Below, one piece after another: positions 1,617 to 17,658 of a stretch of DNA of 17,658 bases. The stretch is from the IMG/VR virus record IMGVR_UViG_2671180727_000013, positions 1 to 17,658 of that record; one strand, written 5' to 3'. The notes beneath the pieces are model-generated. The model searched no databases and had not been told where the DNA came from. It saw nothing but the letters and a program-made list of their open reading frames with translations. Position numbers and translations under genes: made by a program. Each line of letters starts with the position of its first letter. Position 1 is the first letter of the stretch. The DNA is from a virus. Its lineage: Duplodnaviria > Heunggongvirae > Uroviricota > Caudoviricetes.

Positions 1617-1620
1617 CAGA

Positions 1621-2327: not shown

Positions 2328-2329
2328 CA

Positions 2330-2488: not shown

Positions 2489-2913
2489 TAGAGATAAGCA
2501 TCCAGTGACAACTGAAGCGCCTGGGCGATCTTTTTAAGTGCCTGCTCTTCTTGTTCACCAATGCCGTCCTGATCGGCAATATCAAGGCACAGACACAGTA
2601 CATCTACTGCATCATTAGTCCCGGCCACATCAGCCAGCTCACGTAAAGCCTGGGCATTAGCGCGGCGCGGTGAGGCTTCGTATTGAGCACGAATATTGGC
2701 GCTCATTTGGGCAATCTCACCAGCAAACGGAGAAAACGCAGGCAGAGCTGCAATTGTTTTCTCAAGAATGGAAATTTCCTTTGCGTCGCATGTGCCATCG
2801 GCATAGGAGATCATGTACGCGCCCCACACGGTGGCTTCAACCGCATCTCGGTTCTCCATTTTTTTGACCTCGATAACAGCTTTACGAGTTTTCTTTTTGA
2901 ATAAACCTAACAT
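2488..2913 (-). CDS. TerB-like protein (tellurite-resistance TerB fold)
   Basis: 141 aa; ADG...E and LCLCLDIADQDGIGEQEEQALKKIAQAL segments resemble the two TerB repeats; ATG preceded by the conserved leader AAAGGAAAGCAC. Confidence 0.5.
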   Translation of the reverse strand: MLGLFKKKTRKAVIEVKKMENRDAVEATVWGAYMISYADGTCDAKEISILEKTIAALPAFSPFAGEIAQMSANIRAQYEASPRRANAQALRELADVAGTNDAVDVLCLCLDIADQDGIGEQEEQALKKIAQALQLSLDAYL

Positions 2914-2933
2914 GTGCTTTCCTTTTGTTATTT

Positions 2934-2956
2934 GTTAAAACAAGTTGTTTTCTAGT
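2934..2956 (-). promoter_or_regulatory. conserved upstream cassette, copy 2 (minus strand ACTAGAAAACAACTTGTTTTAAC), 20 nt upstream of the 2913 start
   Basis: Same 23-nt element as at 2205..2227 and 13155..13177; perfect 7-nt palindrome arms AAAACAA/TTGTTTT. Confidence 0.5.
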
Positions 2957-2965
2957 TACATGAAT

Positions 2966-3008
2966 TGCTTACGAAAAGACGGTCAATGCATATGCACTAA
3001 CAACCGTC
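2966..3008 (-). terminator. putative terminator-like hairpin after the 62-aa membrane protein gene
   Basis: GACGGT / ACCGTC stem enclosing the palindrome TGCATATGCA, followed on the minus strand by TTTTCG; short stem and long loop, so weak. Confidence 0.35.
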
Positions 3009-3195
3009 AGAAATAACCAAGTACCGAACCAACTGGAAAAACAAAAATCCCAACAACACGAGCCAAGGTCATACCAGCCTGAAACTGGAGATCGCCAGAG
3101 CAAACAAGTTTTATAATGTTCGATACCCAACCGGCGGCCATGAGGGCAAGAATTGCCAGCCAAATTTTTCCAAAGTGATTTGAAAACCAGTTCAT
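3007..3195 (-). CDS. small membrane protein (62 aa, two hydrophobic segments)
   Basis: ATG overlaps the upstream TGA as ATGA (translational coupling); AAGGCGG SD; hydrophobic sequence WLAILALMAAGW ... VVGIFVFPVGSVLGYF. Confidence 0.5.
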   Translation of the reverse strand: MNWFSNHFGKIWLAILALMAAGWVSNIIKLVCSGDLQFQAGMTLARVVGIFVFPVGSVLGYF

Positions 3196-3410
3196 ACAAC
3201 CGCCTTAGTCACAGCATGATCCTGAGTAACTGGATGAACTTGAGGTATCGCATCCACCGTCATCCCATCCAGAGTGACAGGACGCTCTACTGGAGTGGTG
3301 GTAATTGTCGTCGACGGAGGTGTGGTGATGGATGAACCCGGCATCAAAAGGCTCTGGCCGGCTGGAACGGCTATCGTCGCCAGTGAAACTATAATGAGAA
3401 CGTAGGCCAT
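3192..3410 (-). CDS. small secreted Thr/Pro-rich protein with N-terminal signal peptide (72 aa from the ATG at 3410)
   Basis: MAYVLIIVSLATIAVPAGQS looks like a type I signal peptide with an AxA-like site; AGAGG SD upstream; no lipobox Cys. Confidence 0.45.
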   Translation of the reverse strand: MAYVLIIVSLATIAVPAGQSLLMPGSSITTPPSTTITTTPVERPVTLDGMTVDAIPQVHPVTQDHAVTKAVV

Positions 3411-3699
3411 TGGTTTCAGCCTCTTTCTTTGAAAATTTTCCATTCGAACTGTCCTTGTTGTTTTTCTCCTTCACTAAAGGCCGTGTACTTTTCGCTTCGC
3501 GTGAAGAACCAGAGGTAACAATCGCCCCCACGTTCGCAACAACTGACGCTTGCTTATCTAAACGTTCATTCAGCAACCGAACGGCAGTCTCTAGTTCATC
3601 AAGACGTGACAGAACACGACCGCTAAATAATTCGGCCAAAATTTGACGTAGTGAACGAGGACGTTTAGTTGCAGAAGTGAAATAGGTTTGACGTGCCAT
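3205..3699 (-). CDS. hypothetical protein; N-terminal ~90 aa credible, C-terminal low-complexity part overlaps 3192..3410 in another frame and may be spurious
   Basis: ATG at 3699 with GGAG SD 5 nt upstream; 3' end uncertain. Confidence 0.4.
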   Translation of the reverse strand: MARQTYFTSATKRPRSLRQILAELFSGRVLSRLDELETAVRLLNERLDKQASVVANVGAIVTSGSSREAKSTRPLVKEKNNKDSSNGKFSKKEAETNGLRSHYSFTGDDSRSSRPEPFDAGFIHHHTSVDDNYHHSSRASCHSGWDDGGCDTSSSSSYSGSCCD

Positions 3700-3714
3700 G
3701 TGGACTCCATCCAG

Positions 3715-3750
3715 TGTCAGAAAGAGTTGCGGCTGGCGATTGCCAGCCGC
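3715..3750 (-). terminator. putative terminator-like hairpin downstream of the RNase H gene
   Basis: 9-bp GC-rich stem GCGGCTGGC/GCCAGCCGC with 4-nt loop (3729..3750), followed on the minus strand by AACTCTTTCTG. Confidence 0.4.
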
Positions 3751-3844
3751 CTTTCTCGTTCCATCCTGGAACTGTGTCTTACCGACACATTGTCATCCTG
3801 ACGCCGATAAGATACATGATTTAAAATGATAGGTAAACACTTAC

Positions 3845-4438
3845 TTACTGTTTGTTGTAAACAAAACCAATATCTTTCTTGTGAGGCATATCTGCTGCGG
3901 AAAAAGCTGCGATCTTCGCGAGTCGATCACATATTTCATTTTCACGATGCCCGGCGTGACCTTTAACCCACTTCCAGCGAACATTATGTCGACTTGCAGC
4001 CTCATCCAGACGCTTCCACAGATCAACATTCTTTACCGGTTTTTTGTCAGAAGTCACCCATCCATTGCGTTTCCACCATTTCATCCACTGTGTCATGCCG
4101 TTTTTCAGATACTGGCTATCAGAGTGCAAAATAACGTTGCATGGATATTTCAAACGCTCCAGCCCGATAAGTGCCCCCATCATCTCCATGCGGTTATTGG
4201 TGGTGCTATGAAAACCATCTGAGAACTCGCGTTCCTCACCACGATACTGGAGAACTATACCGTAACCGCCCGGGCCACCCGGATTTTTAAGGCAAGAGCC
4301 ATCACTGAAGATTTTCACGGTTTTAAGCTGGGGATTGAACTCTACGACAGGCGTTGTGGAATTGGTGCGGGGAGAATTTTTGTTTTTGGCTTTTTTGCGA
4401 GTTTTTTCTTGCGATCGGGCTGGTGTCTTCGTCGTCAT
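3845..4438 (-). CDS. rnhA: ribonuclease HI-like protein with a ~40-aa basic N-terminal extension
   Basis: [57 protein letters not shown] match E. coli RNase HI motifs. Start set at the ATG at 4438 (MTTKTP) because AGGAG lies 5 nt upstream; the track's longer ORF start has no SD. Confidence 0.85.
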
Positions 4439-4439
4439 A

Positions 4440-5021
4440 TAAACTCCTGAATCAAGCGCCGCGCCGATTTTTTCCTCGCGCGTGCGCACACGCGTGCGTG
4501 TTAATAATTATTAAAATAAACAAATTACTTCCCAGAACAGGTTTTTATAAACCTGAACTGAACGAACGAAGTGAGTGAAGTTCACCTCGAACGAAGTGAG
4601 AGGTTGTCTTTTCAGGTAATACTCTCCCAGGGAGGTGAGTATAAAAATCCCTCACCAACCTGGTCGTTTCATAACCTGAAAAGTTATGGCCTAAGTCTAC
4701 TGCCAGCTTAGACTTGGGAAGTTATGGATGACAGCACCCCAGAACCGAGATCTTCCCACACTTTATGAAGGGGAGTACTGGATTCAACCTCTCTAAACAC
4801 CCCAGACTCGACAATCATAAAGTGACCCTTGTCTCCGCTCACTTTGGTTCCCCCTTCCCCGACACCTAAACGGCACCGGTTCTACGCTGGTAGTGAGCTT
4901 TTTTAAACCTGACGCCAGTGACGCTTACCCCCACCCATCAGGTCGAGTCTCCAGTCTACGACTGGAAACTATCAGATCTTAGCACTTACAATTCACTTTA
5001 TGAATAGTTTGTACTTATCTA
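4440..5021 (-). other. ORF-poor, repeat-rich structured intergenic region (candidate ncRNA, regulatory hub or origin)
   Basis: No ORF of 60 aa or more on either strand; 12-nt direct repeat GAACGAAGTGAG at 4564..4575 and 4589..4600; several hairpins and long-range inverted repeats (details in findings). Confidence 0.4.
4477..4500. repeat. 24-nt perfectly alternating pyrimidine-purine GC-rich tract (Z-DNA-prone), with embedded palindromes
   Basis: CGCGCGTGCGCACACGCGTGCGTG read directly; includes CGCGTG-CGCA-CACGCG hairpin; followed by 14-bp AT palindrome TTAATAATTATTAA at 4501..4514. Confidence 0.6.
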
Positions 5022-5252
5022 TCATTGTGATTGATTATTTTCTCTACCATGTAGTTGAACATTCAAGGCAAACACCTCATTGATCAACTCACCTAAAAGC
5101 TGTTCAACAAGTTCGCGATGCTCGCCAAGATGCAAGCACTTAATTGCCCATTCGTACAAGTTGAAAGCCTGCTCACGATCTTTCATCATTTCACGAGCCT
5201 GGGCCAGAAAATCGCTCTCTACGAGCGCAACGACATTAGTCGGGTATGACAT
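5022..5252 (-). CDS. hypothetical small protein (76 aa from the ATG at 5252)
   Basis: Track ORF 5022..5276 trimmed to the internal ATG that has AAGGA 7 nt upstream; the first ATG lacks an SD. Confidence 0.45.
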   Translation of the reverse strand: MSYPTNVVALVESDFLAQAREMMKDREQAFNLYEWAIKCLHLGEHRELVEQLLGELINEVFALNVQLHGRENNQSQ

Positions 5253-5340
5253 GTTGGTTTCCTTAAAGTGGTTCATAAAATCGATTTTAAAGCGTCTGGG
5301 AAGGGGTTCTAGTGGATTCTGTAGTGATGTTCAGGTCTGG

Positions 5341-5416
5341 AGTCTCTGATACAAAACAGCCTGCTTCCGTATATTAATAATTAATATGTAGTTATTTATA
5401 TATACAGAAGCAGGCT
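5341..5416 (-). terminator. terminator-like long hairpin after the methyltransferase gene
   Basis: Arms 5358..5374 and 5400..5416 pair over 17 positions with one mismatch; 25-nt AT-rich loop containing ATTAATAATTAAT; minus-strand tail GTTTTGTAT. Confidence 0.35.
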
Positions 5417-5437
5417 AATTACAGACGCCAGAACAAA

Positions 5438-6031
5438 CTAAGCAGCCTTCTTTGATGGTCTTTTTTTCCTGATCACATTCGCAGGATCATACCCTCCCAG
5501 ACTTTTCATGACGTCCAAAGGGATCTTGCTTATAGAGTGCCCAGCGTCCTGACAAAATCCTCGAAAAACAACGAGCATACTGCCACCTGGGTTGATGTTT
5601 ACTTCTACCTGACCCAGATTGACGTCAGGCTCGACAAACGCTACGCGGCCACCAGACAGAATAATCGTCTCATTCGCACACTCTGTTGCACGCTCATACC
5701 ACTTTGTATCTAGGGATTGAGGAATTAGCATCACTGTTGTAACTCCGCGAGCCTGCTCACGTATAGCCGCATCAATCCAGGGGGAGATTTTGGAGTAGGG
5801 TGGATTGAGGAAGGCAATTGTACCTGGCTGTCCCCATTCAGATTTCAAAGCATCACGCTCAACGCCTATGAAATTAGGCAGCTTTGCATTGTCCTTGTTG
5901 CAGGCAACGTCAACATCAAATGTCACTCCAAGATAACGTTGAATGGCAGAAAACAGCCAGTCAGGTGTTCTCCAGAGGTCACGAAGAGAGTTGTCGCGCT
6001 TTCGCTGTTTGATTTTTTCGGCTGCAATCAT
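5438..6031 (-). CDS. phage Dam-family DNA N6-adenine methyltransferase
   Basis: N-terminal WRTPDWLF...FDVDVAC and catalytic NPPYS (motif IV) in the order typical of the phage Dam family (PF05869-like); 197 aa; no adjacent restriction-endonuclease gene seen. Confidence 0.75.
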   Translation of the reverse strand: MIAAEKIKQRKRDNSLRDLWRTPDWLFSAIQRYLGVTFDVDVACNKDNAKLPNFIGVERDALKSEWGQPGTIAFLNPPYSKISPWIDAAIREQARGVTTVMLIPQSLDTKWYERATECANETIILSGGRVAFVEPDVNLGQVEVNINPGGSMLVVFRGFCQDAGHSISKIPLDVMKSLGGYDPANVIRKKRPSKKAA

Positions 6032-6090
6032 CTTCTTTCTCGATAGGTAAGTAAATACCTATTTTTGCATTTGATTTTATGTCTGGCAAT

Positions 6091-6139
6091 CAAATAAAAC
6101 GCGCCAGAAATGCAAACGAGAAGCTCTCTGGCGCGTTTT
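6091..6139 (-). terminator. intrinsic terminator after the acidic-protein gene
   Basis: Stem AAAACGCGCCAGA / TCTGGCGCGTTTT (6097..6139), flanked by A/T runs so it has a U-tail in both orientations; minus-strand tail GTTTTATTTG. Confidence 0.6.
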
Positions 6140-6143
6140 TGTG

Positions 6144-6174
6144 GTGCTGGGTATGTGATTGGCTTACCCAGCAC
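6144..6174. other. second tandem hairpin (10-bp perfect stem GTGCTGGGTA/TACCCAGCAC, 11-nt loop)
   Basis: Read directly; no U-tract, function unknown. Confidence 0.4.
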
Positions 6175-6214
6175 TATAAAGCTCTCTATGGGCTTTATTT
6201 TCAGTAGGGGAACG

Positions 6215-7024
6215 TCATCCAATAGTGTACTCCGCGACAAACTTCTTAACGATCGGTGATTCTTCGTTCAATGTTAGATTTCCACCGCCTCTAACGGCAA
6301 TTCCTGTCGCTGGAAATACAGCCATCATTTGCCCAGCCTGAGTTGACGCAGTGTTAAGCGGATACGGTTTTTCTGGATTGCTCATTAAAGCAATCTTAAT
6401 ACTATTACTTGTAGCCTTCTTTTCTGTGAGAAGGTGTCTCATGGAAATTACCGTGTAAACACTAATATCTGGACCTCCGCTAAACCAATTAAGAAGGTTT
6501 AATATCTTATCCTTTGCTTTGACAGGCGCGTTATCGTAAGCGTCTAAGAAAATATCTTTTTCTAAGCCCGCTTTATTGAAAAACGAATCATCTTTATCAC
6601 TTAAAGTAAAACGAGGACCTCTTGCAGTACGAGCTTTTTTATTTGTATTGCTATCATTTGACTGTTGAACTTTTAATTCATCATTAACCTCAACACACTC
6701 TTCAACCTCAATAAATCCCAATTGTTCTGGCTCGTTTTCGGCAGCTTCAACACTTTCAGCGTTAATTACGTTTATAGGCTCATGCGCTAACTCCAACTCA
6801 TTTAAAGCAGAGCTGAAATCACCTGCTTTTTCTTCATTGAACAGTTCTTCGGCAACATCATCAGAACTCATGGCTACGCCAGCATCTAGGCCGAGCAGCA
6901 GATCGTCAATATCATCAGTATTTTCAACCTGTGCAGCTTTTTTTACTGGTTCATCAAGTGATTGCAACATGGCTGTCAGCTCGTCCAGATCATCATTTGT
7001 CATTACATTTTCAACCGAACTCAT
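6215..7024 (-). CDS. hypothetical protein with strongly acidic N-terminal half (Asp/Glu-rich)
   Basis: 269 aa; AGGAG SD 8 nt upstream of the ATG; N-terminal ~120 aa dominated by D/E; no catalytic motif recognised. Confidence 0.55.
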   Translation of the reverse strand: MSSVENVMTNDDLDELTAMLQSLDEPVKKAAQVENTDDIDDLLLGLDAGVAMSSDDVAEELFNEEKAGDFSSALNELELAHEPINVINAESVEAAENEPEQLGFIEVEECVEVNDELKVQQSNDSNTNKKARTARGPRFTLSDKDDSFFNKAGLEKDIFLDAYDNAPVKAKDKILNLLNWFSGGPDISVYTVISMRHLLTEKKATSNSIKIALMSNPEKPYPLNTASTQAGQMMAVFPATGIAVRGGGNLTLNEESPIVKKFVAEYTIG

Positions 7025-7133
7025 GTAAGTCTCCTTCTGTTTGGTTACATTTGCGTTTCGATGGCTACATTTTGACTAAACCTATCAGGCGGAAAAGTAT
7101 TAAATACAGGCAGGAAATGATTGAAAGGCGACT

Positions 7134-7178
7134 GTTCTTTAAAAGAAAGCCTACTTTAAACTTTTTAAAGTAGGCTTT
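7134..7178 (-). terminator. intrinsic terminator immediately after the exonuclease gene
   Basis: ~15-bp stem (7146..7160 with 7164..7178) and 3-nt loop; T-runs on both sides (minus tail TCTTTTAAAG, plus tail TTTTGTTTT). Confidence 0.6.
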
Positions 7179-7182
7179 TGTT

Positions 7183-7740
7183 TTACACAATTTCAGAGGG
7201 TAATTTAAAAAATCCGTACTTATTACGTGCCTTAAAGAAGCATTGCATCATTAAGTTTGTGTCATATAAGGCACTATGTGCTTTGGCATGATCGTATATA
7301 AAGCCAAGAGAGAAGGCCAACTCTTCAAGGCGGGGACGTTTACCGTCTTCTGTGGCCCACAATCCCGATAACATAGTATCTATAACAGGAACTTCTGGCA
7401 GTCTTACTCCATACCCTGAAAACTCGTGTCGAATAAATGGTATATCAAATGCTTCGCCGTTATGAGCAACCCACACACTACATGCCCCCATATAAGCGCC
7501 AATTTCGCTGGCATGATTTGACAACAAAGGTTCAGCTGCGAGCTGTTCCAATGAAATGCCATGAACGGCTTGAGCTTTCGGATCTATGTTTCTGCGAGGG
7601 TTAAAACGCATCTCCAGACTATCAATATGTCTCTGTGTCTCCAGTTCATAGCGGGTAATTGCGATTTCAATAATTTTATGACCAGCAAGGAAATCCAGTC
7701 CCGTAGACTCGATATCGATGCCTGCAACAATCGTTGTCAT
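7183..7740 (-). CDS. DnaQ-like DEDDh 3'-5' exonuclease
   Basis: Exo I GIDIESTGL, Exo II HNGEAFDIPF, Exo III HSALYDT; AAGGAG SD; 185 aa. Confidence 0.8.
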   Translation of the reverse strand: MTTIVAGIDIESTGLDFLAGHKIIEIAITRYELETQRHIDSLEMRFNPRRNIDPKAQAVHGISLEQLAAEPLLSNHASEIGAYMGACSVWVAHNGEAFDIPFIRHEFSGYGVRLPEVPVIDTMLSGLWATEDGKRPRLEELAFSLGFIYDHAKAHSALYDTNLMMQCFFKARNKYGFFKLPSEIV

Positions 7741-7749
7741 CAGAACTCC

Positions 7750-8169
7750 TTACAACTTCTTAGCGCCCTTAAGTAGTGCGCTACGTACAAATTGAGCCGC
7801 TTTTTTCAAAGTTTCTTCACTGGTTTCACAGACAATCGGATCTTTCCACTTACCTGACACAGTGTTGAGAATATTGATTTGGTTGCTATCCAGACAAACA
7901 GAGATATAAAGCACCGTGCCACCAGCCAGCATCAAATGCATAGGAAACAGAGGCTTTTTACTGCCTTCACTGAACTGAGACATGGCGATGTTAATGGCTT
8001 CACCCACTTGTGTACCAACAAGCCCCTGCGCAGTTTCGAATATGGCACGAATAGCCAGACGAGCCTCTCGATCGCTCATAAGCGACCGGGAATGTTCGTC
8101 CGCTACACGAATCAAAGCCTCTGTTGTTTTCCGATCCAGTTCATCTTCAAGCAACATTTCACTAAACAT
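7750..8169 (-). CDS. hypothetical protein (139 aa)
   Basis: ATG with AAGGA SD 7 nt upstream; its stop overlaps the RBS of the exonuclease gene; no family recognised. Confidence 0.5.
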   Translation of the reverse strand: MFSEMLLEDELDRKTTEALIRVADEHSRSLMSDREARLAIRAIFETAQGLVGTQVGEAINIAMSQFSEGSKKPLFPMHLMLAGGTVLYISVCLDSNQINILNTVSGKWKDPIVCETSEETLKKAAQFVRSALLKGAKKL

Positions 8170-8230
8170 TTTTTATCCTTAACCCATTTTGAGAGTTTTA
8201 TTGTCGCAATGTCGAAGAGGCGAACAATTT

Positions 8231-8875
8231 CTAATGAACGGTCACTCGGCCACAGAACCGGTTTTCTATCTTTTCTACAGCGTTATCTAGCATTCTCATC
8301 ACTGATCTGGCTCTTGCTTCAACCGTGCGATATCGGTTGGAAACGACGAAGGTTTGCAGATCTCCCCTTTGCGGATGCAGGTGAATTTTTGTCAGTTCCC
8401 CGCACATCAACGCATCAATACGAGCGACATACAGACGGTCTAATGATGCTCGTTGTGACCGCAAGTAATCTCGCTCTGAGAGAGCGACCCCCGGGCGTAG
8501 GCCAGCAATGGCGTTAAAGTTTGAAATAGCAGTTTTGTGGCAAAACTTTTCGATATCGAGGGCTAACTCAATACACCGATCTTCATTTGTATGGCCGACC
8601 AAATCCAACGTGTAGGCCATAACATCAGCAGGTGTGCGATCGATAACAAAGCCTTCAACACCACGCGTAAGTAGCTCTATATGCTTTGCTATTTCCATTT
8701 GAATCTGAAGCCGCTCATATAGAGGCATAGAATCACCTACTCGAACACCGAGGCGGCTCATCAAACTTCCGACACCAGCATCCACGTAAGGGATTCCGTA
8801 ATGTTTGTCGATATATTTAGCCAGGGTTGTTTTCCCACTGCCCTGAGCACCAGTGATCCCAATCCGGTAATCCAT
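8231..8875 (-). CDS. P-loop nucleotide/nucleoside kinase-like protein
   Basis: Walker A GITGAQGSGKTT near the N-terminus (dephospho-CoA kinase / uridine kinase style); start overlaps the DHFR stop as TAATG; substrate not assignable. Confidence 0.5.
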   Translation of the reverse strand: MDYRIGITGAQGSGKTTLAKYIDKHYGIPYVDAGVGSLMSRLGVRVGDSMPLYERLQIQMEIAKHIELLTRGVEGFVIDRTPADVMAYTLDLVGHTNEDRCIELALDIEKFCHKTAISNFNAIAGLRPGVALSERDYLRSQRASLDRLYVARIDALMCGELTKIHLHPQRGDLQTFVVSNRYRTVEARARSVMRMLDNAVEKIENRFCGRVTVH

Positions 8876-9351
8876 TACGACCTTCTGTATACGATCTGCG
8901 AAAAGCCAGGCTCTTCCTCGCTGGCTCGTTGGGTATAAGCTGTTTCAACAGGCACAAAGCCTAAATTACGCATCATGCTTGCCGGGAAGAATGCATCGGC
9001 GTTTGGCACATCAACGCCGATGTGGGAGAGCCAAATCTCTTCAACATGCGGCATGAATAGCGAGTAAATTTGTTCCCCGCCAATCACCCACACAGGCTCT
9101 GGTAATCGCAACACATCATCCACACCAGCAGGGTAGAATCCATTTGGTACAAAGCCATGAGAGCGCGTCAAAACGAGGTTATGACGCTCTGGAAGAGGGC
9201 GTTTGAGACTTTCCATCGTTTTACGCCCCATAACGACAGTGGCGTTTTTGGTGAGTCTCTTAAATAGCTTCAGATCGGTAGAACAACGCCAGGGGAGTTC
9301 ATTCGCTATGCCGATCTCATAGTTACGGCCAACAGCAGCGATCATCTTCAT
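8875..9351 (-). CDS. folA: dihydrofolate reductase
   Basis: MKMIAAVGRNYEIGIANELPW...VVMGRKTMESL...RPLPERHNLVLTR...VWVIGGEQIY aligns with E. coli FolA motifs; 158 aa; ATGA overlap with upstream gene. Confidence 0.85.
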   Translation of the reverse strand: MKMIAAVGRNYEIGIANELPWRCSTDLKLFKRLTKNATVVMGRKTMESLKRPLPERHNLVLTRSHGFVPNGFYPAGVDDVLRLPEPVWVIGGEQIYSLFMPHVEEIWLSHIGVDVPNADAFFPASMMRNLGFVPVETAYTQRASEEEPGFSQIVYRRS

Positions 9352-9761
9352 TTGCTCACCTCATAGATGACCGGTCGATGGTGAGAGTCGGCTAAAGCGG
9401 CACGGAGTCGAGGATCGTGCACCAGCGCAGCGATAAGCAGATCGCCTTTATGCTCCGCTAATGTGCGCTTAATATGCTTCTCATAACTGGTGCCATTCGG
9501 TACGAGATGAAGCCAGTCATAATCAACGCCAAAATCTTTCAGCCATCGTTTAGTTGGCGCTTCAAGAGTTTCAGAGCGGCTACTGATAAGCACCACTTCA
9601 GCCCCTGAGCGAGCAAAACCACGCAACATACGGCTGGTGGGGAAAATGAGTTCATCACCGGCAATGAGCTGGCCTGCATCCGCGTCAGATACTGATTTAC
9701 GATGGCTGGCATTTGCCAGCACACCTTCAATTTCGCATAAGACATACATACCTCTTGCCAT
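9348..9761 (-). CDS. hypothetical protein, possibly HAD-like fold with Glu in place of the motif I Asp residues
   Basis: Start set at the ATG at 9761 (MARGMYVLCEIEGVL), 1 nt after the thymidylate synthase stop; hhhExEGvL then VVLISSRSE then K...GD pattern is reminiscent of HAD motifs I-IV. Weak. Confidence 0.3.
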   Translation of the reverse strand: MARGMYVLCEIEGVLANASHRKSVSDADAGQLIAGDELIFPTSRMLRGFARSGAEVVLISSRSETLEAPTKRWLKDFGVDYDWLHLVPNGTSYEKHIKRTLAEHKGDLLIAALVHDPRLRAALADSHHRPVIYEVSK

Positions 9762-9762
9762 A

Positions 9763-10866
9763 TCACACCGCCACTGGAACCTTGATCCACGATAGAGGGT
9801 CATAGCCAAGAATTAAAACCTCGTCCCATTTGAAATCATCCAACTCTGACCATTCATGAGGGAAAATAACGACCGGATCTGAATGCTCTGGAGCCTGTCG
9901 TTTCATTAGCTCACACACACCTTCCATGTGGTTGTTGTACAAATGCACGTCAAAGCCAAAATGCACAAATGCACCGGCCATGTGACCCGTAATCTTCGCG
10001 AGAAAATGAGTGAGAATGCCATAGCCAGCAATATTGAATGGCATACCAACAAAAGTGTCTACGCTACGCTGTACGAGGCAGGAGTTGAGGATGCGTTTGG
10101 GGATTCCAAGTTCATCCAGTTCAGCTTCAGTAACACTGCCGTCCATCTCCAGATCGTATAGCATCTTGGTGTAGATAGACTCGTAACCGAGGCGACTGTG
10201 TTGAAGACCAATGTCAGTTGCCATCGTTAAACGGGTTTCAAAATCCAGCTCACGACTCCACAAAGAGAAGACAAAGTGGCAAGGTGGCAGTTTCATATCC
10301 TCAAGCTCGCCTACGTTCCATGCGTTAAGCATGATGCGACGATCGGTAGGGTTCGTGCGCAGTGTATCGACAATACGCTGTAGCTGATCGATTTCACGGG
10401 ACAGCACTACGCGATCTTCACTGATACCCAGGTATCCCTCGACTTTGTACCCGCGTTCACGGAAAGTAGCGATCTTGCTCAGATATTCACTATGGCTCAC
10501 GATGCGGGTATCTTCCCATCGACGCCACTGCTTACCGTAAACCGGCCCCAAATCGCCATTCTCATCGGCCCATGCATCCCAAATCTTAACGCCGTTATCC
10601 TTGAGAAATTGGATGTTGCCCGTGCCTTTCAGATACCACTCAAGTTCGACAAGCAGTGGCTTAAGATTTACCGCCTTTCCAGAAATAAGCGGCACAGTCC
10701 CACCAGTAAGCATGTAGTAAGAGGGAACGTAGCAGGTGCTTAAAGTACCAGTGCCTGTGCGATCATCAGCCTGCACGCCGCTTTTAAGCACCGTCTCAAT
10801 AACTTTTGCATACGATGCGTTTGTTACCTGACCGTTCGTATGCTCACGATTCAAAAGGAGTGACAC
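9763..10866 (-). CDS. thyA: thymidylate synthase (ThyA-type) carrying two large insertions
   Basis: DRTGTGTLS, IWDAWADENGDLGPVYGKQWRRW, DRRIMLNAWN, LPPCH, QRSVDTFVGMPFNIAGY (Asn retained, so dUMP-specific), HLYNNHM. Start ambiguous: GTG at 10866 has GAGG 5 nt upstream; the track's GTG at 10893 has no SD. Confidence 0.85.
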   Translation of the reverse strand: MSLLLNREHTNGQVTNASYAKVIETVLKSGVQADDRTGTGTLSTCYVPSYYMLTGGTVPLISGKAVNLKPLLVELEWYLKGTGNIQFLKDNGVKIWDAWADENGDLGPVYGKQWRRWEDTRIVSHSEYLSKIATFRERGYKVEGYLGISEDRVVLSREIDQLQRIVDTLRTNPTDRRIMLNAWNVGELEDMKLPPCHFVFSLWSRELDFETRLTMATDIGLQHSRLGYESIYTKMLYDLEMDGSVTEAELDELGIPKRILNSCLVQRSVDTFVGMPFNIAGYGILTHFLAKITGHMAGAFVHFGFDVHLYNNHMEGVCELMKRQAPEHSDPVVIFPHEWSELDDFKWDEVLILGYDPLSWIKVPVAV

Positions 10867-10940
10867 AAAAACCTCACAAAGATAAGTAACCACTTATTCA
10901 TTGCGTGAGTTTACATTTATTGAGAGAACAAGACCAGACA

Positions 10941-10969
10941 GATAAAAAAATGGTGGCCATAGGCCACCA
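10941..10969 (-). terminator. intrinsic terminator after the 289-aa gene
   Basis: 8-bp stem TGGTGGCC/GGCCACCA with 3-nt loop, followed on the minus strand by TTTTTTTATC. Confidence 0.7.
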
Positions 10970-11037
10970 AAAACGAATAGTTGTTTCAGAAATTTAACGC
11001 GCCAACGCAATATACACAGATAGATAACTACCTACAA

Positions 11038-11907
11038 TTATTTTTTGATCATTCCGTACATTGCTGAGGCTTTAGCTTGCTCAACAAAGGAGGATAAATC
11101 GACATCACTATAGGTTGGAGACTTCAGAATCTTTCCATCGGAAATTCGAAAACCGATCATCTTATCGGTGCCATCAGCATGGCGGAATCCCAGGTCTGAA
11201 GAGTCGTATTTGCAGTTGGCCACAGCCTGGCGACGTTCCTCAACATCAGCAGGCCATAATTTTGTCATGTTAGACCGATGAATTTCGCCAACCAGCTCGA
11301 CTACATTGATACCGAGGAAATCAGCCAGTCGATAGGTCATCATGCACGCCACATAGATTTTGTTCATGACACGGCGCAGTTCCTGAATCAGCTCAGAATC
11401 CTTAACAGTCTTGTTCTCAAGTTTATCTGCCAGCTCTTCGAGCATACATGACGCCTCACGAGCTTCCTGAAATGGCATTGCCATATCATCGAAAACAGTG
11501 TTACCGGGCACAAAAATTGTCTGCATAAAGCGATCAATGCTCTGTTCCTGCGTGTAATAGGTCATGCCGGTAGAAATACCACCTTTGATGGCGACCATCG
11601 TACCAACACCAACGTATAAAAAGTCGGCCATTGCATCCAGCAGTTGCTCAATATCCCCATTCATTGCGGCTGGAATACCTTCCACTACAGCTTCTTCATG
11701 AATCAGGCTTGCACGGAGACGAAGCAGCTCTGGTGTCGGCATAACGCGTCTCGGATGCTGGAAGAGTTCATGAAACTGATCGACCATCTTGTAAATACTT
11801 TCAGTAGCTACACCATGACCTTCATGCAACTCATATGGTTCTGGCTTAAATCCAATGAGTCGATCGGTGGCAAGTTTCAGGTGGTCAGTCAGTTTGGTAA
11901 AGTTCAT
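11038..11907 (-). CDS. putative all-alpha NTP pyrophosphohydrolase (MazG / dimeric dUTPase-like), tentative
   Basis: 289 aa; two EE-x-x-E ... D-x-x-x-D/E acidic helix patterns (LIHEEAVVEG...DIEQLLDAMADFLYV; EAREASCMLEELADKLE). Assignment by motif impression only. Confidence 0.35.
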   Translation of the reverse strand: MNFTKLTDHLKLATDRLIGFKPEPYELHEGHGVATESIYKMVDQFHELFQHPRRVMPTPELLRLRASLIHEEAVVEGIPAAMNGDIEQLLDAMADFLYVGVGTMVAIKGGISTGMTYYTQEQSIDRFMQTIFVPGNTVFDDMAMPFQEAREASCMLEELADKLENKTVKDSELIQELRRVMNKIYVACMMTYRLADFLGINVVELVGEIHRSNMTKLWPADVEERRQAVANCKYDSSDLGFRHADGTDKMIGFRISDGKILKSPTYSDVDLSSFVEQAKASAMYGMIKK

Positions 11908-11942
11908 GCTAGTTTTGTTCCTTCTTAATTCTTGTGATCCAT

Positions 11943-11967
11943 TGTGGCCCAGCGTTGCCAGGCCACA
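11943..11967 (-). other. stem-loop in the nrdB to downstream-gene spacer (7-bp stem TGTGGCC/GGCCACA, 11-nt loop)
   Basis: Read directly; no U-tract, so probably not a terminator. Confidence 0.3.
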
Positions 11968-11984
11968 TAATGCTTTGTATCGGT

Positions 11985-13127
11985 TTACAGGTCAGCAAAC
12001 TGGCTTAGAGAAGCCTTATCCACGGTAGAATCGATCTGACCTACCAGATATGTGCTTTGCTCTGCCTCTTGTGGTGCAATTTGCAGTGTGTCGGTTAACA
12101 ACCACTTGTTCATCCAGACCAGCGGATCGGTGGTAACCTCTGGAAATAAAGCCTTCAGGCCAAGACGATTCATAGCCAGATTGGTGCGGTATTTTACATA
12201 GGTTTTGAGAATATCCGCGTTTAAACCAATCATCGAACCGTCTTTGAAGAGATAGTCTGCCCAGTTCATTTCTTGTTCGGCGACTGATTTCATGGTGTCG
12301 TAAATGACGTTTTCTTCATCAGCAGCAATCTCTTTCCACAATAAACCTTCGCGACCGGTACGCATGAAGCGGATCATGCGTTCAGTTCCTTCGCAATGCA
12401 GAGCTTCATCACGGGCAATAAAGCGCATAATTTTGGTGTTACCCTCAAGCAACTTCCGTTCGCCAAAGGCAAACGTACATGCAAAACTTACATAGAAACG
12501 GATCGCCTCAAGCGCATTAATGGACACCAACGTGCGGAAAAGCTGACGGTGCAAAGGGTATGGCTCCCAGCCATATTCATTTACGTACAGACGTTCAAAC
12601 TCCTTCTCACCTAACGACTGGCGCTCGCAGGTCATCCCATAAAGCCTGTCATATTCAGCAGAGATACTGATCGCTCGGTTGATGATTTCTTCATCCGTAA
12701 CAATACCGTCAAAAACAATGCTCGGATCGTCCACCATGCCACGAATAATGTGGGTGTAGCTGCGGCTATGGATAGTCTCAGAGAAAGACCACGTTTCAAC
12801 CCACGTTTCCAGTTCAGGAATAGAGATAAGCGGCAGCAGCGTTGCATTTGGACTACGTCCCTGAACTGAATCGAGTAACGTTTGATAACGGAGATTGCTC
12901 AGAAAAATGTGACGTTCGTGGTCCCGCAGCTTCGTGTTGAAGTCGATACGATCGCTCGAAATATCAACTTCTTCCGGCCGCCAGAAGAAAGACAATTGAC
13001 GTTCAATCAACTTTTCAAAATCACGGTATTTTTGCTGATCGTAACGTGCCACGTTGACAGATTGTCCGAGGAACATAGGCTCTTTGGTTGCATCATTAGC
13101 ACCCAAACGGAACGTTGAATATGACAT
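11985..13127 (-). CDS. nrdB: ribonucleotide reductase class Ia small (beta) subunit
   Basis: 380 aa; long stretches near-identical to E. coli NrdB as I recall it ([90 protein letters not shown]). Uninterrupted, no intron. Confidence 0.95.
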
Positions 13128-13154
13128 GTGTTTTTCCTTTTTCTTTTTTGGTGC

Positions 13155-13177
13155 GTTTAAACAAGTTGTTATCTTAT
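13155..13177 (-). promoter_or_regulatory. conserved upstream cassette, copy 3 (minus strand ATAAGATAACAACTTGTTTAAAC), 27 nt upstream of the nrdB start, plus a partial extra TTGTTTAAAC copy at 13180..13189
   Basis: Third copy of the 23-nt element; lies between the nrdA terminator and the nrdB RBS, followed by the leader AAGGAAAAACAC ATG. Confidence 0.5.
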
Positions 13178-13195
13178 GTGTTTAAACAAGGCTTA

Positions 13196-13228
13196 CAAAT
13201 CAAAGAGAAGGTGGGGATATCCCCCACC
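13196..13228 (-). terminator. intrinsic terminator immediately after nrdA
   Basis: GC-rich hairpin GGTGGGG-ATATC-CCCACC (13210..13228) followed on the minus strand by TTCTCTTTGATTTG. Confidence 0.6.
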
Positions 13229-13233
13229 ATATG

Positions 13234-15549
13234 TCAGATTTTGCAGGCTCCGTCGCACTCATCTTCTGGCTCGACGGCTACAGCTTGCGTCAGTGGATTC
13301 TGCGGTTCGTCGTCATCACGCTTTCCTGCCCCATCTCTGGTGTTGTGGTAGTAAAGCGTTTTAACTCCCATCTTGTAGGCGAGAAGCAAATCTGACAGTA
13401 GCGTCATCATTGGGACTTTATCGCCTTCAAAGCGAGAAGGGTCATAGTTGGTATTGGCTGAAATAGCCTGGTCAAAGAACTTCTGGATGATCGCCACCTT
13501 TGTCAGATAGCCGCGGTTGTCCGGCATATCCCACAGGTATTCATACTGTTCCTTCAGTTTTTCAAACTCAGGCACGACCATCTTAACGATGCCGTCCTTA
13601 GAAGATTTCACTGACACCGGGCCACGAGGCGGTTCGATGCCGTTGGTGGAATTAGTGATCTGGCTGGAAGTCTCGCATGGCATTTGTGCCGTCAGTGTGG
13701 AGTTGCGAAGGCCGTATTTTGCAATACGTTCACGCAGTTCTTCCCACGGCATCTTTAACTCAAAGTTGGTTTCGCCACTTTCGTCTAATGAAGAACGGTA
13801 ATGGTCGATCGGCAACTGACCAATTGCGTACTTGGTCTGCTCAAACCAGTCACACTCACCTTTTGCTTCAGCAAGTCGGCAGCTGGCATCAAGAAGGTAA
13901 TACTGGATAGCTTCGAACGTTTCATGCACCAGTTTATTGCCAGCGGTATCAGAATAACGAACGCCATTCTTTGCCAGGTAATAAGCAAAGTTGGTTACAC
14001 CAATTCCCAAGCTACGACGAGCTTTGGCAGGCACTTCGGCTGCCTCCATCGGATAGTCTTGATAATCCAGTAACGAATCCAGTGCAGCAACGGCATAGAA
14101 CGCCACCTCTTTAAGAGACTCCAGTGAACGGATGGCTCCGAGGTTAAAAGCGGATAAAGTGCATAGCGCGATCTCACCGTTCGGGTCGTCGGTAAATGCC
14201 AGTGGACGAGTGGGTAGAGTGATCTCCATGCACAGGTTTGACTGGCGAACAGGTGCAAGAGCAGGAATGAAAGCGCCATGCTCGTTAATATGATCGACGT
14301 TCGCAATATAAATTCGGCCCGTGGACGCTCGTTCCTGCATCAGAGATGAGAACAGCTCAATGGCAGGTACTGACTTCTTGCGAATTGAATCATCGGCTTC
14401 GTATTTATGGTACAGCTTTTCAAACAGCTCCTGGTCTGTGAAGAAGGCTTCGTACATATCAGGCACATCATGCGGGCTGAACAGAGTGATGTTCTCGCTT
14501 CTGACGAGTCGACGGTACATTAGACGGTTACTCATGACGCCGTAATCAAGATGGCGAACGCGGTTTTCATCAATACCACGGTTATTTTTCACCACCAGCA
14601 GACTTTCAACTTCAAGATGCCAGATCGGGTAAAACGCTGTTGCTGCGCCACCACGAACACCACCTTGCGAACAAGATTTAACAGCCGTCTGGAAATGCTT
14701 CAGGAATGGAATAACTCCGGTATGGGTGGCTTCACCATTGCGGATCTCGCTGCCCAGCGCACGGATACGGCCAAAACCAATACCAATTCCAGCACGACGT
14801 GAAACGTAGTCGATAATTGCGGCTGAAGCTGCACTAATCCCTTTCAGACTATCGCCAGACTCAATCAGCACACAACTGGAGAACTGACGGGTTGGAGTAC
14901 GGACGCCGGCCATGATTGGTGTGGGCAGAGACAGTTTGAACGTACTTGTAACGTCATAGAAACCTTTGACCATCTCCATACGTGTTTTGCCAGCGCAGTC
15001 GTCTTCCCAATTCTGGAACAGACACATGCCTACCAGCATATAGATATGTTGCGGCCCCTCATGAATCTCACCAGTAACACGGTTTTGAACGAGGTATTTG
15101 CTTTGCAATTGCACCGTAGCCGCATAGCCAAAAAGATCGTCACGTTTAGGCTTAATGTAATTGCCGAGTTCTTCGATCTCTTCAAATGAATAATGTGTCA
15201 GCAAATCCTTGTCATAAACGCCCTTGTTAACGTTCTTGACAATGTGTTGGTAGAAGTTCGGATAGTCGTAACGACCGAAGGCATCTTTGCGGATTTTAAA
15301 AATGTTCAGGCGGGCAGCCACCTGCGAGTAATTTGGTGCATCTGGTGAGATCAAATCAGCGGCAGATTTAACCAAAGCCTCATGCAACTGGCTGGTGGTA
15401 ATCCCATCAAAAATGCTGGCCGCAGCTCCCATTGCTACAGCGGATGCGCTTACGCCACGAATGCCTTCTACGCCATACATTACGACGCGGTTGTATTTTT
15501 CTTCGGATAACGGCTCTGTTTGGCCGTTACGTTTTACGATGCTTATCAT
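13234..15549 (-). CDS. nrdA: ribonucleotide reductase class Ia large (alpha) subunit
   Basis: 771 aa, collinear with E. coli NrdA from the ATP-cone region (VKRNGQTEP) to the C-terminal CxxxxGACKI tail; many near-identical blocks (QNRVTGEI, PTPIMAGVRTPTRQFSSCVLIE, SCSQGGVRGGAAT, NLCMEI, ALCTLSAFNLG). Confidence 0.95.
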   Translation of the reverse strand: MISIVKRNGQTEPLSEEKYNRVVMYGVEGIRGVSASAVAMGAAASIFDGITTSQLHEALVKSAADLISPDAPNYSQVAARLNIFKIRKDAFGRYDYPNFYQHIVKNVNKGVYDKDLLTHYSFEEIEELGNYIKPKRDDLFGYAATVQLQSKYLVQNRVTGEIHEGPQHIYMLVGMCLFQNWEDDCAGKTRMEMVKGFYDVTSTFKLSLPTPIMAGVRTPTRQFSSCVLIESGDSLKGISAASAAIIDYVSRRAGIGIGFGRIRALGSEIRNGEATHTGVIPFLKHFQTAVKSCSQGGVRGGAATAFYPIWHLEVESLLVVKNNRGIDENRVRHLDYGVMSNRLMYRRLVRSENITLFSPHDVPDMYEAFFTDQELFEKLYHKYEADDSIRKKSVPAIELFSSLMQERASTGRIYIANVDHINEHGAFIPALAPVRQSNLCMEITLPTRPLAFTDDPNGEIALCTLSAFNLGAIRSLESLKEVAFYAVAALDSLLDYQDYPMEAAEVPAKARRSLGIGVTNFAYYLAKNGVRYSDTAGNKLVHETFEAIQYYLLDASCRLAEAKGECDWFEQTKYAIGQLPIDHYRSSLDESGETNFELKMPWEELRERIAKYGLRNSTLTAQMPCETSSQITNSTNGIEPPRGPVSVKSSKDGIVKMVVPEFEKLKEQYEYLWDMPDNRGYLTKVAIIQKFFDQAISANTNYDPSRFEGDKVPMMTLLSDLLLAYKMGVKTLYYHNTRDGAGKRDDDEPQNPLTQAVAVEPEDECDGACKI

Positions 15550-15552
15550 GTA

Positions 15553-15588
15553 TCACCAAATAAAGAGGGCCACTATATTTAGTGGCCC
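15553..15588 (-). terminator. intrinsic terminator between the RuvC-like gene and nrdA
   Basis: 9-bp stem GGGCCACTA/TAGTGGCCC with 4-nt loop (15567..15588), followed on the minus strand by TCTTTATTTGG. Confidence 0.6.
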
Positions 15589-15613
15589 ATGTTAATAGAT
15601 AAGCACTTACCTA

Positions 15614-16192
15614 TCAATGAGATCTAATGAGAGACTTGAGAACATCGCGCACCTGGCGAAACTGATCTGTTTGCATACCGGTATGGATGGCAGCCACCGC
15701 ATCAGCCAAATGTTCGTTTTTGTTCACGAGAACATCCTGTCCAGATTGCTTACGACGCAGCCACGGTGCTTTAGGGTGTTTTTTCGTAGCCCACTGGATA
15801 ATCTCTTCTTTCGATGTAGTAAGTTTATTGCCAACAAAATGCTTGATTTCGTTTGGAGTAACCTGGATCAATGGCTTATCTACGCACGCAAGTACACCGA
15901 TGCAAATACCGTAAGACGTCTGCGAACGAGAGTTTTGGCTCCCAACCGGTAGCTCACAAAAAACCATATTTGCCTTATCAATGATTGGCTTCGCAACACG
16001 CCATATTTCACTGGCACGGCGCAGATCGTCACTGTTCACACGAACGGTCTTTTTGTTACTCCCCGCTTTAGTCTCAACAAGAGTAAGGCCGTGAATCTCA
16101 AGTTCGTCCGTTTCAAGGTCTAAAGTGCCCACAGCAAGCCCAAAGTTGCTCATAGAGGGATCAACACCAACTACGCTGATTTTTTTACTCAT
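15614..16192 (-). CDS. RuvC-like Holliday-junction resolvase (RNase H-fold nuclease)
   Basis: N-terminal ISVVGVDPSMSNFGLAV (RuvC/YqgF-type first strand with catalytic Asp), CELPVG (Glu), C-terminal HLADAVAAIH; GGAGA SD directly after the upstream stop. Confidence 0.55.
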   Translation of the reverse strand: MSKKISVVGVDPSMSNFGLAVGTLDLETDELEIHGLTLVETKAGSNKKTVRVNSDDLRRASEIWRVAKPIIDKANMVFCELPVGSQNSRSQTSYGICIGVLACVDKPLIQVTPNEIKHFVGNKLTTSKEEIIQWATKKHPKAPWLRRKQSGQDVLVNKNEHLADAVAAIHTGMQTDQFRQVRDVLKSLIRSH

Positions 16193-16201
16193 ATAGTCTC
16201 C

Positions 16202-16934
16202 TTACCATGTTCCCCATATAGGGTTTTCCAATAATCTCGCCTCCAACGAATTGGCTACTATTGCCGTTTGCAACGTTGGTTGGGGATAGTTTGCAAAGTC
16301 TGAATACTCATTTTCCTGCGTGACACGTTTATCTACGGCATGTTTAACGCCACTTGCTATGAAATGACGCATGATGCCCAACAGCCTCCGACTGTCTGCA
16401 CTATCGTTTGCTAAAACATGAGGGAGCTGAAGTTCGATTTCTACCATTTCTCCATACTTACCAACAAACTGTAGTTTGTCCGCACTGTACTTTTTATCCC
16501 TCCTTTGGATAAGGAAACCAGTAAAAGCATCACCTGGCGATGCCAAACTATCCACCCGCTTATTGGCAAGTCGAATAAGGTTCGTGAAAGCCATACAGAG
16601 ATGCGCATCCATTGCCCCAAAGAACCCTTCGCTATCAATGTTAAGATCTTCAGTTTCATGGGTTGCGATAAACCCAGGCCCGACGTTGGGGAGATATCCC
16701 CCCTCAACAAAAGGATTAATCAGGATCGGCGCAATACATCCAGGTGGTAGTGATTTCAAACTTTGCATCAATGGCGTCTCGGATATTAGACCAAGCAACG
16801 CGGCGAATTGTACTCCGTCAATATTGTTGCTGCCCCACAGAATACGTGGAGCCGCACCATTGGAAGTATGCCCATTGATCAGTTTTATCGACTGCATCAC
16901 TGCAAATACCTGCAAAAACTGCGAGCGGCTTAAT

Positions 16935-16945
<11 letters not shown>
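16202..16945 (-). CDS. hypothetical protein (247 aa), translationally coupled between the ATPase lobe and the RuvC-like gene
   Basis: ATG at 16945 lies 11 nt inside the upstream ORF; no motif of a known nuclease or phosphoesterase family recognised. Confidence 0.5.

Positions 16946-17658
<713 letters not shown>

Follow-up and report, generated by a model that had tools for sequence, protein, structure and literature searches.

An enlarged thymidylate synthase of SSU5-like phage-plasmids, with two predicted surface modules shared by a wider viral lineage

The window analyzed here is the whole of a 17,658-nucleotide stretch of a tailed-phage record (IMG/VR IMGVR_UViG_2671180727_000013, positions 1 to 17,658), and the gene of interest in it codes for an enlarged thymidylate synthase (TS), ThyA. 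The coding sequence lies on the minus strand at 9763-10866 and has 367 codons and a TGA stop at 9763-9765 (1104 nucleotides). Because the thyA region is 100% identical to the Escherichia coli plasmid NZ_CP020118.1, 99.6% identical to Escherichia phage Cyrano, and 78% identical to Salmonella phage SSU5, the window is part of an SSU5-like phage-plasmid of E. coli. With a probability of about 0.8, the gene encodes a functional folate-dependent ThyA, translated from the GTG at 10866, with two folded surface inserts inherited from an old viral lineage. ThyA is among the most thoroughly studied enzymes and is a drug target, and the protein of the window fits best as one example of a viral form of this enzyme that is widespread but uncharacterised. 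Hundreds of records already carry the gene under a TS annotation, and no paper describing the inserts was found in the literature searched.

The family assignment is clear. The product matches PF00303 with E = 7.6e-78 and 261.8 bits (cutoff 24.3) and TIGR03284 with 217.2 bits (cutoff 108.35); its best PHROG is PHROG 160, "thymidylate synthase" (E = 1.2e-94), and its top sequence matches among PDB chains in a phmmer search are TSs without exception. The scores for the narrow cellular ThyA equivalogs of NCBIfam all fall below their cutoffs (NF002497, 259.3 vs 327; NF002499, 236.5 vs 405; NF002496, 208.4 vs 325; NF010393, 137.7 vs 576), which places the protein, as judged from its sequence, outside the curated cellular subfamilies. 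The ThyX/Thy1 type (PF02511) was considered and ruled out, as Pfam reports PF00303 only. The corresponding gene of Escherichia phage Cyrano (OV696614, 6024-7127) is labelled "ThyX Thymidylate synthase"; this is an annotation error, because the protein matches PF00303 only. The identical protein (P0001) stands for 1101 member sequences, and a coding sequence of the same 1104 nucleotides is annotated in Cyrano, SSU5, and PhiR41_1, in all three cases from the codon equivalent to 10866.

The first-pass annotation, made from the sequence alone, had considered the start codon ambiguous and favored the GTG at 10866 behind a GAGG; the preference holds, and the ambiguity largely disappears once relatives are compared. 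The mechanical open reading frame (ORF) at 9763..10893 on the minus strand has 376 codons, and the only in-frame ATG, GTG, or TTG codons near the N-terminus are GTG 10893, GTG 10866, and TTG 10854. When seven relatives are compared over the DNA around the start, the codon at the position of 10866 (10864..10866, minus strand) reads GTG in Cyrano as in the window, ATG in phage PhiR41_1 and in the Enterobacter plasmid pCP102, and TTG in SSU5 and in a Klebsiella plasmid. A GAGG Shine-Dalgarno core, read from the sequence at 10872..10875 (minus strand), stands 5 nucleotides before the GTG, and it is kept 5-6 nucleotides before the start in Cyrano, PhiR41_1, SSU5, and the Klebsiella plasmid. In PhiR41_1, whose thyA is 98% identical, a stop codon two codons upstream of the start closes the longer ORF. 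The alternation of ATG, GTG, and TTG at one position, the conserved GAGG, and the PhiR41_1 stop together confirm GTG 10866 as the predicted start of translation. As for the alternatives, TTG 10854 is CTG in SSU5, and the open in-frame stretch 5′ of the start (10867..10893, minus strand) appears untranslated by comparison, the peptide it would encode being unconserved in SSU5 and in the Klebsiella and Enterobacter plasmids. GTG 10893, the start of the mechanical ORF, falls inside a conserved palindrome at 10882-10897 (see following).

The phmmer match between ThyA and E. coli TS falls into three blocks in collinear order, and only E. coli TS is gapped between them: in the numbering of the 376-residue ORF, residues 27-127, 165-212, and 270-376 match E. 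coli residues 3-102, 106-153, and 160-264. This puts the extra length inside the protein and not just at its ends. In the 367-residue numbering used from here on, and with boundaries set by alignment to canonical TSs of 264-284 residues and checked against the DNA translations, insert 1 consists of residues 123-156 (34 residues, VSHSEYLSKIATFRERGYKVEGYLGISEDRVVLS; 10399..10500, minus strand) and insert 2 of residues 207-257 (51 residues, LDFETRL...DELGIPK; 10096..10248, minus strand). Both are gapped in all the canonical TSs aligned. Insert 1 (site 1) falls in the loop at E. coli 101-107, between the YGKQWR-W helix and the IDQ helix, and insert 2 (site 2) at E. coli 155-159, the tip of the β-hairpin that follows the strand of the catalytic cysteine. 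The alignments also show an N-terminal extension of 15-17 residues relative to the E. coli ThyA start (residues 1-17; 10816..10866, minus strand), with identities of 0-76% within the clade and a predicted local distance difference test score (pLDDT) of 62 for its first 10 residues. With two trivial insertions of 1 and 2 residues, the excess over E. coli ThyA (264 residues) comes to 103 residues. At the site where the Lactobacillus casei enzyme is enlarged (site A, E. coli 78-93), the net insertion is zero. The first-pass annotation had described a thymidylate synthase about 100 residues longer than E. coli ThyA, its catalytic blocks kept, with in-frame insertions of some 30 and 50 residues that are protein and not introns; family scores, alignment, and the selection and fold data given below bear this out point by point.

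All the residues that define ThyA are present, aligned, and invariant. In the window protein (E. coli equivalents in parentheses) these are R36 (R21), E74 (E58), W96 and W99 (W80 and W83), Y110 (Y94), R176/R177 (R126/R127), C196/H197 (C146/H147), R267/S268/D270 (R166/S167/D169), N278 (N177), and H308/Y310 (H207/Y209), and the C-terminal PVAV is kept. C196, in a PCH motif, is the nucleophile, and the four phosphate-binding arginines are accounted for by R36, the R176/R177 pair, and R267. In TSs, the arginine pair is donated to the partner subunit. The invariant N278, within PFNIAGY, occupies the position that selects uracil over cytosine. A gene for dihydrofolate reductase (DHFR), an enzyme needed only where dihydrofolate is produced, remains adjacent to thyA down to relatives that are 50% identical. 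Since all the ThyA-defining residues are present and the DHFR gene is conserved nearby, the chemistry is almost certainly the canonical dUMP-to-dTMP conversion, linked to the DfrA51-like DHFR encoded nearby. In the ThyA homodimer, Cys196 would attack dUMP, and a one-carbon unit and a hydride would be transferred from methylene-tetrahydrofolate to give dTMP and dihydrofolate (EC 2.1.1.45); the latter would be re-reduced by the DHFR encoded two genes downstream.

The inserts are predicted to fold. An AlphaFold2 monomer model, built with an alignment of 42 sequences, has a pLDDT of 93.9 and a predicted template modelling score of 0.92. Insert 1 appears in it as a strand running on from WEDTRIV, a pair of short helices, and a β-hairpin (strands 141-146 and 152-159), with 10-residue block means of pLDDT of 90-97; insert 2 is formed by helices 209-225, 231-242, and 247-253 between the strands of the hairpin, with pLDDT around 95. 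Both inserts would thus be, according to the model, genuine surface modules that fold independently. When the model is searched against the PDB with Foldseek, only TSs are found. The match to E. coli TS has E = 2e-30 and a TM-score of 0.94 normalized to the target, and solved TSs in general are almost fully covered as targets while about two-thirds of the query is covered (TM-score normalized to the query, TMq, 0.68-0.70); neither insert module is present in the solved TS structures searched. Among the predicted viral structures in BFVD, the best matches are a 471-residue protein (TMq 0.85) and the 457-residue TS of Pseudomonas phage 201phi2-1 (TMq 0.82), and the models of these two cover more than the core. 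Models of the T4 gp42 type are distant structural matches (TMq 0.48).

Both inserts are also conserved as protein sequence. Between the window and SSU5, the proportions of nonsynonymous and synonymous differences (pN/pS) are 0.053/0.79 (core), 0.038/0.55 (insert 1), and 0.139/0.82 (insert 2); the synonymous sites are saturated (pS 0.55-0.94), such that pN/pS ratios overstate dN/dS, and a formal estimate of dN/dS failed. These values show both inserts to be under apparent purifying selection. Their lengths are constant among relatives that are 46-88% identical. Insert identity across the clade is 16-74%, vs 56-88% for the core, and hence the inserts diverge faster. In insert 1, V123, R138, G139, Y140, and G144 are fixed; in insert 2, R212 and P256 do not vary among two-insert relatives and R258 hardly does, G139, R212, and P256 being invariant in 21 of 21 two-insert proteins. 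The motif W-[ED]-D-T-R-[IV]-V...RG[YF]...VV.R of insert 1 is common to jumbo-phage and metagenomic ThyAs, and the motif ..E-R....D...[IV]P[RK]R.L of insert 2 is widely shared. No Pfam domain is found within either insert at E values up to 10, apart from a meaningless 12-bit match to Sedlin_N; there is therefore no sign of a captured domain. In the search for introns and riboswitches, no Rfam family reaches its gathering threshold anywhere in the window, and Pfam detects no Hint or homing-endonuclease domain in thyA or its inserts.

The inserts are not peculiar to the gene of the window, a point that the first-pass annotation had missed; they appear to be homologous modules of a large viral ThyA lineage. 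We use "two-insert ThyAs" as a working grouping, not a curated family, for proteins with net inserts of at least 10 residues at both E. coli 98-111 and 149-161 and with the motifs W-[ED]-D-T-R-[IV]-V..RG[YF] and ..E-R..D...[IV]P[RK]R.L. The window protein belongs to it, with WEDTRIV...RGY and ..ETR...LDELGIPKRIL. On plasmids, thyA is present in 742 records, 694 of which cover at least 80% of the gene and keep a single uninterrupted frame. One E. coli plasmid, NZ_CP103696.1, matches thyA at two places, neither of them annotated as a gene, from query base 168 only and with 100% identity; this copy looks truncated or interrupted.

After the SSU5-like elements, the closest relatives found by tblastn among 50,697 phage records are the ThyAs of enterobacterial jumbo phages, with 37-40% identity. 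Those of SPN3US, Erwinia phages Machina and Wellington, Cronobacter phage CR5, and others match in one piece over 95-98% of the query, and SPN3US gp037 and the Machina and CR5 proteins have inserts of similar size at both sites. The motifs in common are W-[ED]-D-[TV]-[RK]-[ILV]-V...G[YF]...G at site 1 and [ST]-R-E-[LM]...E-R......D...[IV]-P-x-R-x-L at site 2. Both inserts are also present in PhiPA3 gp274, annotated as the counterpart of phiKZ gp235 and 201phi2-1 gp350, together with a third one of about 100 residues at the L. casei site.

Many metagenomic phage ThyAs have both inserts as well. A profile of 21 two-insert proteins gave 17,927 TS matches in 1.84 billion cluster representatives, and the best 150 of these were mapped onto a profile of canonical TSs, a sample biased toward insert carriers since the query profile itself holds the inserts. 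This sample is dominated by long forms, up to 821 residues. Insertions of at least 10 residues occur at both sites in 73 of the 150, at site 2 only in 45, and at site 1 only in 14, and 46 have an insertion at site A; the lengths are 10-135 residues at site 1, 11-80 at site 2, and 11-95 at site A. ThyAs with very large insertions were misplaced by hmmalign (giving negative zone counts), and these were kept in the site counts and dropped from the analysis of core distances. The insert motifs of both sites recur across the 150 proteins. The contigs of five two-insert proteins are phage-like: one has SSU5 synteny, two are of 52-68 kb, and two, of 292-356 kb, are jumbo-like. In a nearest-neighbor analysis of cores alone, concordance in insert state is 0.78-0.79 vs 0.53-0.54 expected, and the window core is equally close to canonical 264-residue TSs (47-48%) and to other insert-bearing ones. 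Because core distances are not decisive and viral cores are very divergent, a single origin of the inserts rests on the shared motifs and not on a tree; read in this way, the inserts would be ancestral traits of a broad viral ThyA lineage and not recent acquisitions.

Other architectures are found in the same sample. N-terminal overhangs of at least 50 residues are reported by hmmalign in 37 of the 150 proteins (P0121-P0269), some of these being misaligned proteins with very large internal insertions, and the C-terminal overhangs of P0223 and P0265, about 500 residues long, suggest fusions. This variety of metagenomic and phage ThyA architectures appears to be uncharacterised.

Comparison with well-studied enzymes places the two sites differently. 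E. coli ThyA (264 residues; PDB 2TSC, 1TYS) has the same fold, the same catalytic and ligand-binding residues, and the C-terminal PVA[IV], and is 34% identical to the window protein over the full alignment and about 44-45% over the aligned core columns, but it lacks the N-terminal extension and the 34- and 51-residue inserts. In human TS, 12 residues are inserted at position 117 and 8 at position 146 (PMC5929524). The human enzyme also has an N-terminal extension; it has 8 residues at site 1 against 34 in the window protein, a 12-residue insert at site A that is absent from the window protein, and nothing at site 2. Position 146 we take, from the human sequence, to be the loop of insert 1. Site 1 is thus a known variable loop, which in the window protein has 34 residues with a predicted secondary structure of their own. 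The small domain of the L. casei and Enterococcus faecalis TSs contains a helical insertion of about 50 residues whose extent and structure vary by organism (PMC6479881). In these enzymes (about 315 residues) the insertion precedes GDLGPVYG, at site A (E. coli ~78-93), and since the net insertion of the window protein there is zero, its inserts lie at other sites than the L. casei enlargement. Site 2 has no counterpart in the characterized enzymes. Human TS has its Y202 on the rim of the contact between the two monomers, close to the partner-subunit residues K47′, T55′, and D254′ (PMC9831607). W203 of the window protein aligns with Y202, as judged from the peptide quoted in that paper, and insert 2 begins four residues later; hence it should emerge at the edge of the dimer interface.

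Among phage enzymes, SPN3US gp037, Machina gp242, CR5_107, and PhiPA3 gp274 carry both inserts at the sites of the window ThyA and share with it W-[ED]-D-[TV]-[RK]-[ILV]-[IV]...G[YF] and ..ER...[IV]P.R.L. They are 35-41% identical to the window protein and differ from it in their gene neighborhoods, which have no adjacent DHFR. ThyAs of the phiKZ type are longer still (457-476 residues), their third insert of about 100 residues at the L. casei site being absent from the window protein. In PhiPA3, GFP-tagged TS is excluded from the phage nucleus (bioRxiv 10.1101/2021.04.26.441357). The td TS of phage T4 (286 residues, PDB 1TIS) is a phage ThyA like that of the window. Its insertions stand, we presume, at other positions, in the small-domain region and near the C-terminus, and Finer-Moore and colleagues are said to have proposed in 1994 that they serve the complex that synthesizes deoxynucleoside triphosphates (dNTPs). 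The T4 td gene also carries a group I intron; nothing equivalent is seen in the thyA of the window, where Rfam gives no match.

The roles of the inserts can only be ranked: an added contact or dimer-support surface comes first, and tolerated decoration second. The first-pass annotation's suggestion that the inserts may add a surface for interaction or regulation is a plausible conjecture. We infer that the reaction chemistry is unaffected by the inserts, which would serve as additional surface, because the two-insert form is found only in phages in our sample, its motifs are conserved, the inserts are under purifying selection, insert 2 is acidic, and it is positioned at the edge of the interface. 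The likeliest roles would be to buttress or extend the dimer, or to dock other phage proteins in the manner reportedly proposed for the T4 TS insertions. Several observations weigh against assigning the inserts such a role. The faster evolution of the inserts is equally expected of a tolerated surface decoration. Either insert occurs alone (site 2 only in 45 and site 1 only in 14 of the 150 best matches), and since either can be lacking, they are not two obligate halves of one device. No partner gene shared by the SSU5-like and SPN3US-like loci was found: the gene that precedes SPN3US thyA and the MazG-like gene of the window, though both of 289 residues, are unrelated, and no Pfam domain was detected in seven neighbors of jumbo-phage thyA. 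Plaques are only weakly affected when phiKZ gp235 is knocked down by antisense (PMC12571901), and the literature searched yielded no enzymology, oligomer, or interaction data on the window ThyA or its two-insert relatives.

The alternative that survives best, though we consider it somewhat doubtful, is that the inserts are tolerated, near-neutral elaborations of the surface at insertion-prone loops, folded but with neither a regulatory function nor a specific partner. All three positions, sites 1 and 2 and site A of the L. casei enzyme, behave as hot spots, with the wide ranges of length given above (10-135, 11-80, and 11-95 residues), the inserts diverge faster than the core, either can be absent, and no conserved neighboring partner gene was found. 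One would not expect from near-neutral loops, however, that RG[YF], E-R, and [IV]P[RK]R be shared by phage-plasmids and jumbo phages at less than 40% identity, that pN be far below pS in both inserts, or that insert length be constant over hundreds of plasmids; and 85 useless codons are rarely retained in compact phage genomes.

A more specific version of the added-surface reading, which we hold to be doubtful, is that the inserts form a virus-specific docking surface tethering ThyA to phage proteins of nucleotide synthesis or replication, in a dNTP complex like that of T4, for which the T4 TS insertions reportedly offer a precedent. It would fit the tight block that thyA forms with the genes of ribonucleotide reductase, a MazG-like protein, a phosphatase, DHFR, and a kinase-like ATPase, the restriction of the two-insert form to phage contexts within the sample, and the strongly acidic character of insert 2 (net charge -6 for the segment with its flanks, and net negative charge in 75% of 108 site-2 segments). 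Yet the genomic neighbors are wholly different between the SSU5-like and the jumbo-phage loci, and per residue the inserts are on average only about twice as negative as the whole proteins.

Rather unlikely, when taken by itself, is that insert 2, possibly with insert 1, reinforces or remodels the homodimer through inter-subunit contacts or higher oligomers and so alters its stability or half-of-sites behavior. The argument for it is positional: insert 2 starts four residues past W203, which corresponds to the interface-rim residue Y202 of human TS (PMC9831607). The hairpin that insert 2 extends is part of the β-sheet of the interface. The structure model is a monomer, though, the tip of the hairpin may point away from the partner subunit, and site-2 inserts of 11-80 residues are hard to square with a precise interface. 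A broader proposal, which we offer as a long shot of similar standing, is that the inserts are a virus-specific device kept from phage-plasmids to nucleus-forming jumbo phages, either a docking platform for a dNTP-synthesizing or replication-coupled complex or a shield against a host factor or regulation that acts on the surface or dimer interface of the host ThyA.

That the protein is instead a ThyA-family pyrimidine hydroxymethylase or another base-modifying enzyme, with inserts adapted to that role, is very improbable. ThyA-family hydroxymethylases of dCMP/dUMP, and other variants, are known from phages (PMC7824862; PMC13326640), and genes of the MazG-like and phosphatase types often accompany DNA-modification pathways. 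The window protein nevertheless has Asn278 and not the Asp of dCMP hydroxymethylases such as T4 gp42, it keeps Y110, H308/Y310, the tryptophans that bind folate, and the C-terminal PVAV, a conserved DHFR gene lies next to thyA, and its best PHROG is thymidylate synthase. Finally, the additional residues might be artefactual, the product of a frameshifted fusion, of an intron left unspliced, or of an intein. Only the group I intron of T4 td prompts this idea, which can be dismissed, given the single open frame in the 694 plasmid records with gene coverage of at least 80%, the lack of Rfam matches and of Hint or endonuclease domains, insert sizes (34 and 51 residues) far below that of inteins, protein-level selection, and the confident predicted fold of the inserts.

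The large ORFs of the window lie on the minus strand throughout, and thyA is part of a block of nucleotide metabolism genes. Upstream of it are NrdA (13234-15549), NrdB (11985-13127), and a MazG-like pyrophosphohydrolase of 289 residues (11038-11907), of which only residues 42-106 match the PRA-PH/MazG domain, the other ~180 residues having no domain assignment. Downstream come a HAD/PNKP-phosphatase-like protein of 137 residues (9348-9761), DHFR (8875..9351; PF00186, E = 1.6e-34), and a kinase-like P-loop ATPase (8231-8875), all on the minus strand. Plasmids of Klebsiella, Enterobacter, and Moellerella have the genes of the block in this order, as does a metagenomic relative with a 50% identical ThyA. 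The phosphatase-like gene starts 2 nucleotides past the thyA stop and overlaps the DHFR start, and it stands between thyA and dhfr in all the SSU5-like relatives examined, including the one with 50% ThyA identity. Its product belongs to PHROG 5387 (function unknown), has a weak match to PF25109 and no NCBIfam match, and may be a (deoxy)nucleotide phosphatase of the thymidylate pathway. The DHFR protein of the window is 91% identical to that of SSU5, which has been named DfrA51 and whose cloned gene raises the minimum inhibitory concentrations of trimethoprim and confers resistance (PMC12217456). The phage-plasmid of the window thus probably carries a trimethoprim-insensitive DHFR beside its own ThyA.

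The intergenic DNA contains several conserved elements. An intrinsic-terminator-like hairpin followed by a T-run (10951..10969, minus strand) ends the MazG-like gene and separates it from thyA; the hairpin, GGTGGCC...GGCCACC, and its T-run are conserved in Cyrano, PhiR41_1, SSU5, and the Klebsiella plasmid. A promoter scan found no sigma-70 promoter on the coding strand between this terminator and thyA. The operator-like palindrome ATAAGTggttACTTAT lies at 10882..10897 (minus strand), 15 nucleotides upstream of GTG 10866. Palindromes of the form ATAGGTA-N2-6-TACCTAT are also found at 15595-15614 (45 nucleotides before the nrdA ATG at 15549), at 6043-6062 (12 nucleotides before the ATG of a methyltransferase gene at 6031), and at 11020-11035, this second thyA-side copy being about 155 nucleotides upstream of the thyA start. 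In a scan of the window, strict matches number 3, vs 0.5 expected in shuffles, and both Cyrano and SSU5 have palindromes at equivalent positions before nrdA, thyA, and the methyltransferase gene. This distribution suggests that one regulator may control the three genes. A second palindrome, AACAAGTTGTT, occurs at 2210-2220, 2939-2949, and 13160-13170, within a longer conserved stretch, aaaacaacttgtttaa, and 19-32 nucleotides before three starts (ORFs at 2190 and 2913, and nrdB at 13127). It may be another operator or a promoter element.

If the inserts are functional, in the control of the dimer or in the assembly of a complex, they would point to a phage-specific organization of thymidylate synthesis, and such an organization, if true, would be common to the clinically widespread SSU5-like phage-plasmids and to jumbo phages. 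Hundreds of Enterobacterales plasmids pair this ThyA with a DHFR that is probably insensitive to trimethoprim. Lysogens would therefore hold a second, divergent thymidylate cycle, which could affect antifolate susceptibility or rescue thyA mutants.

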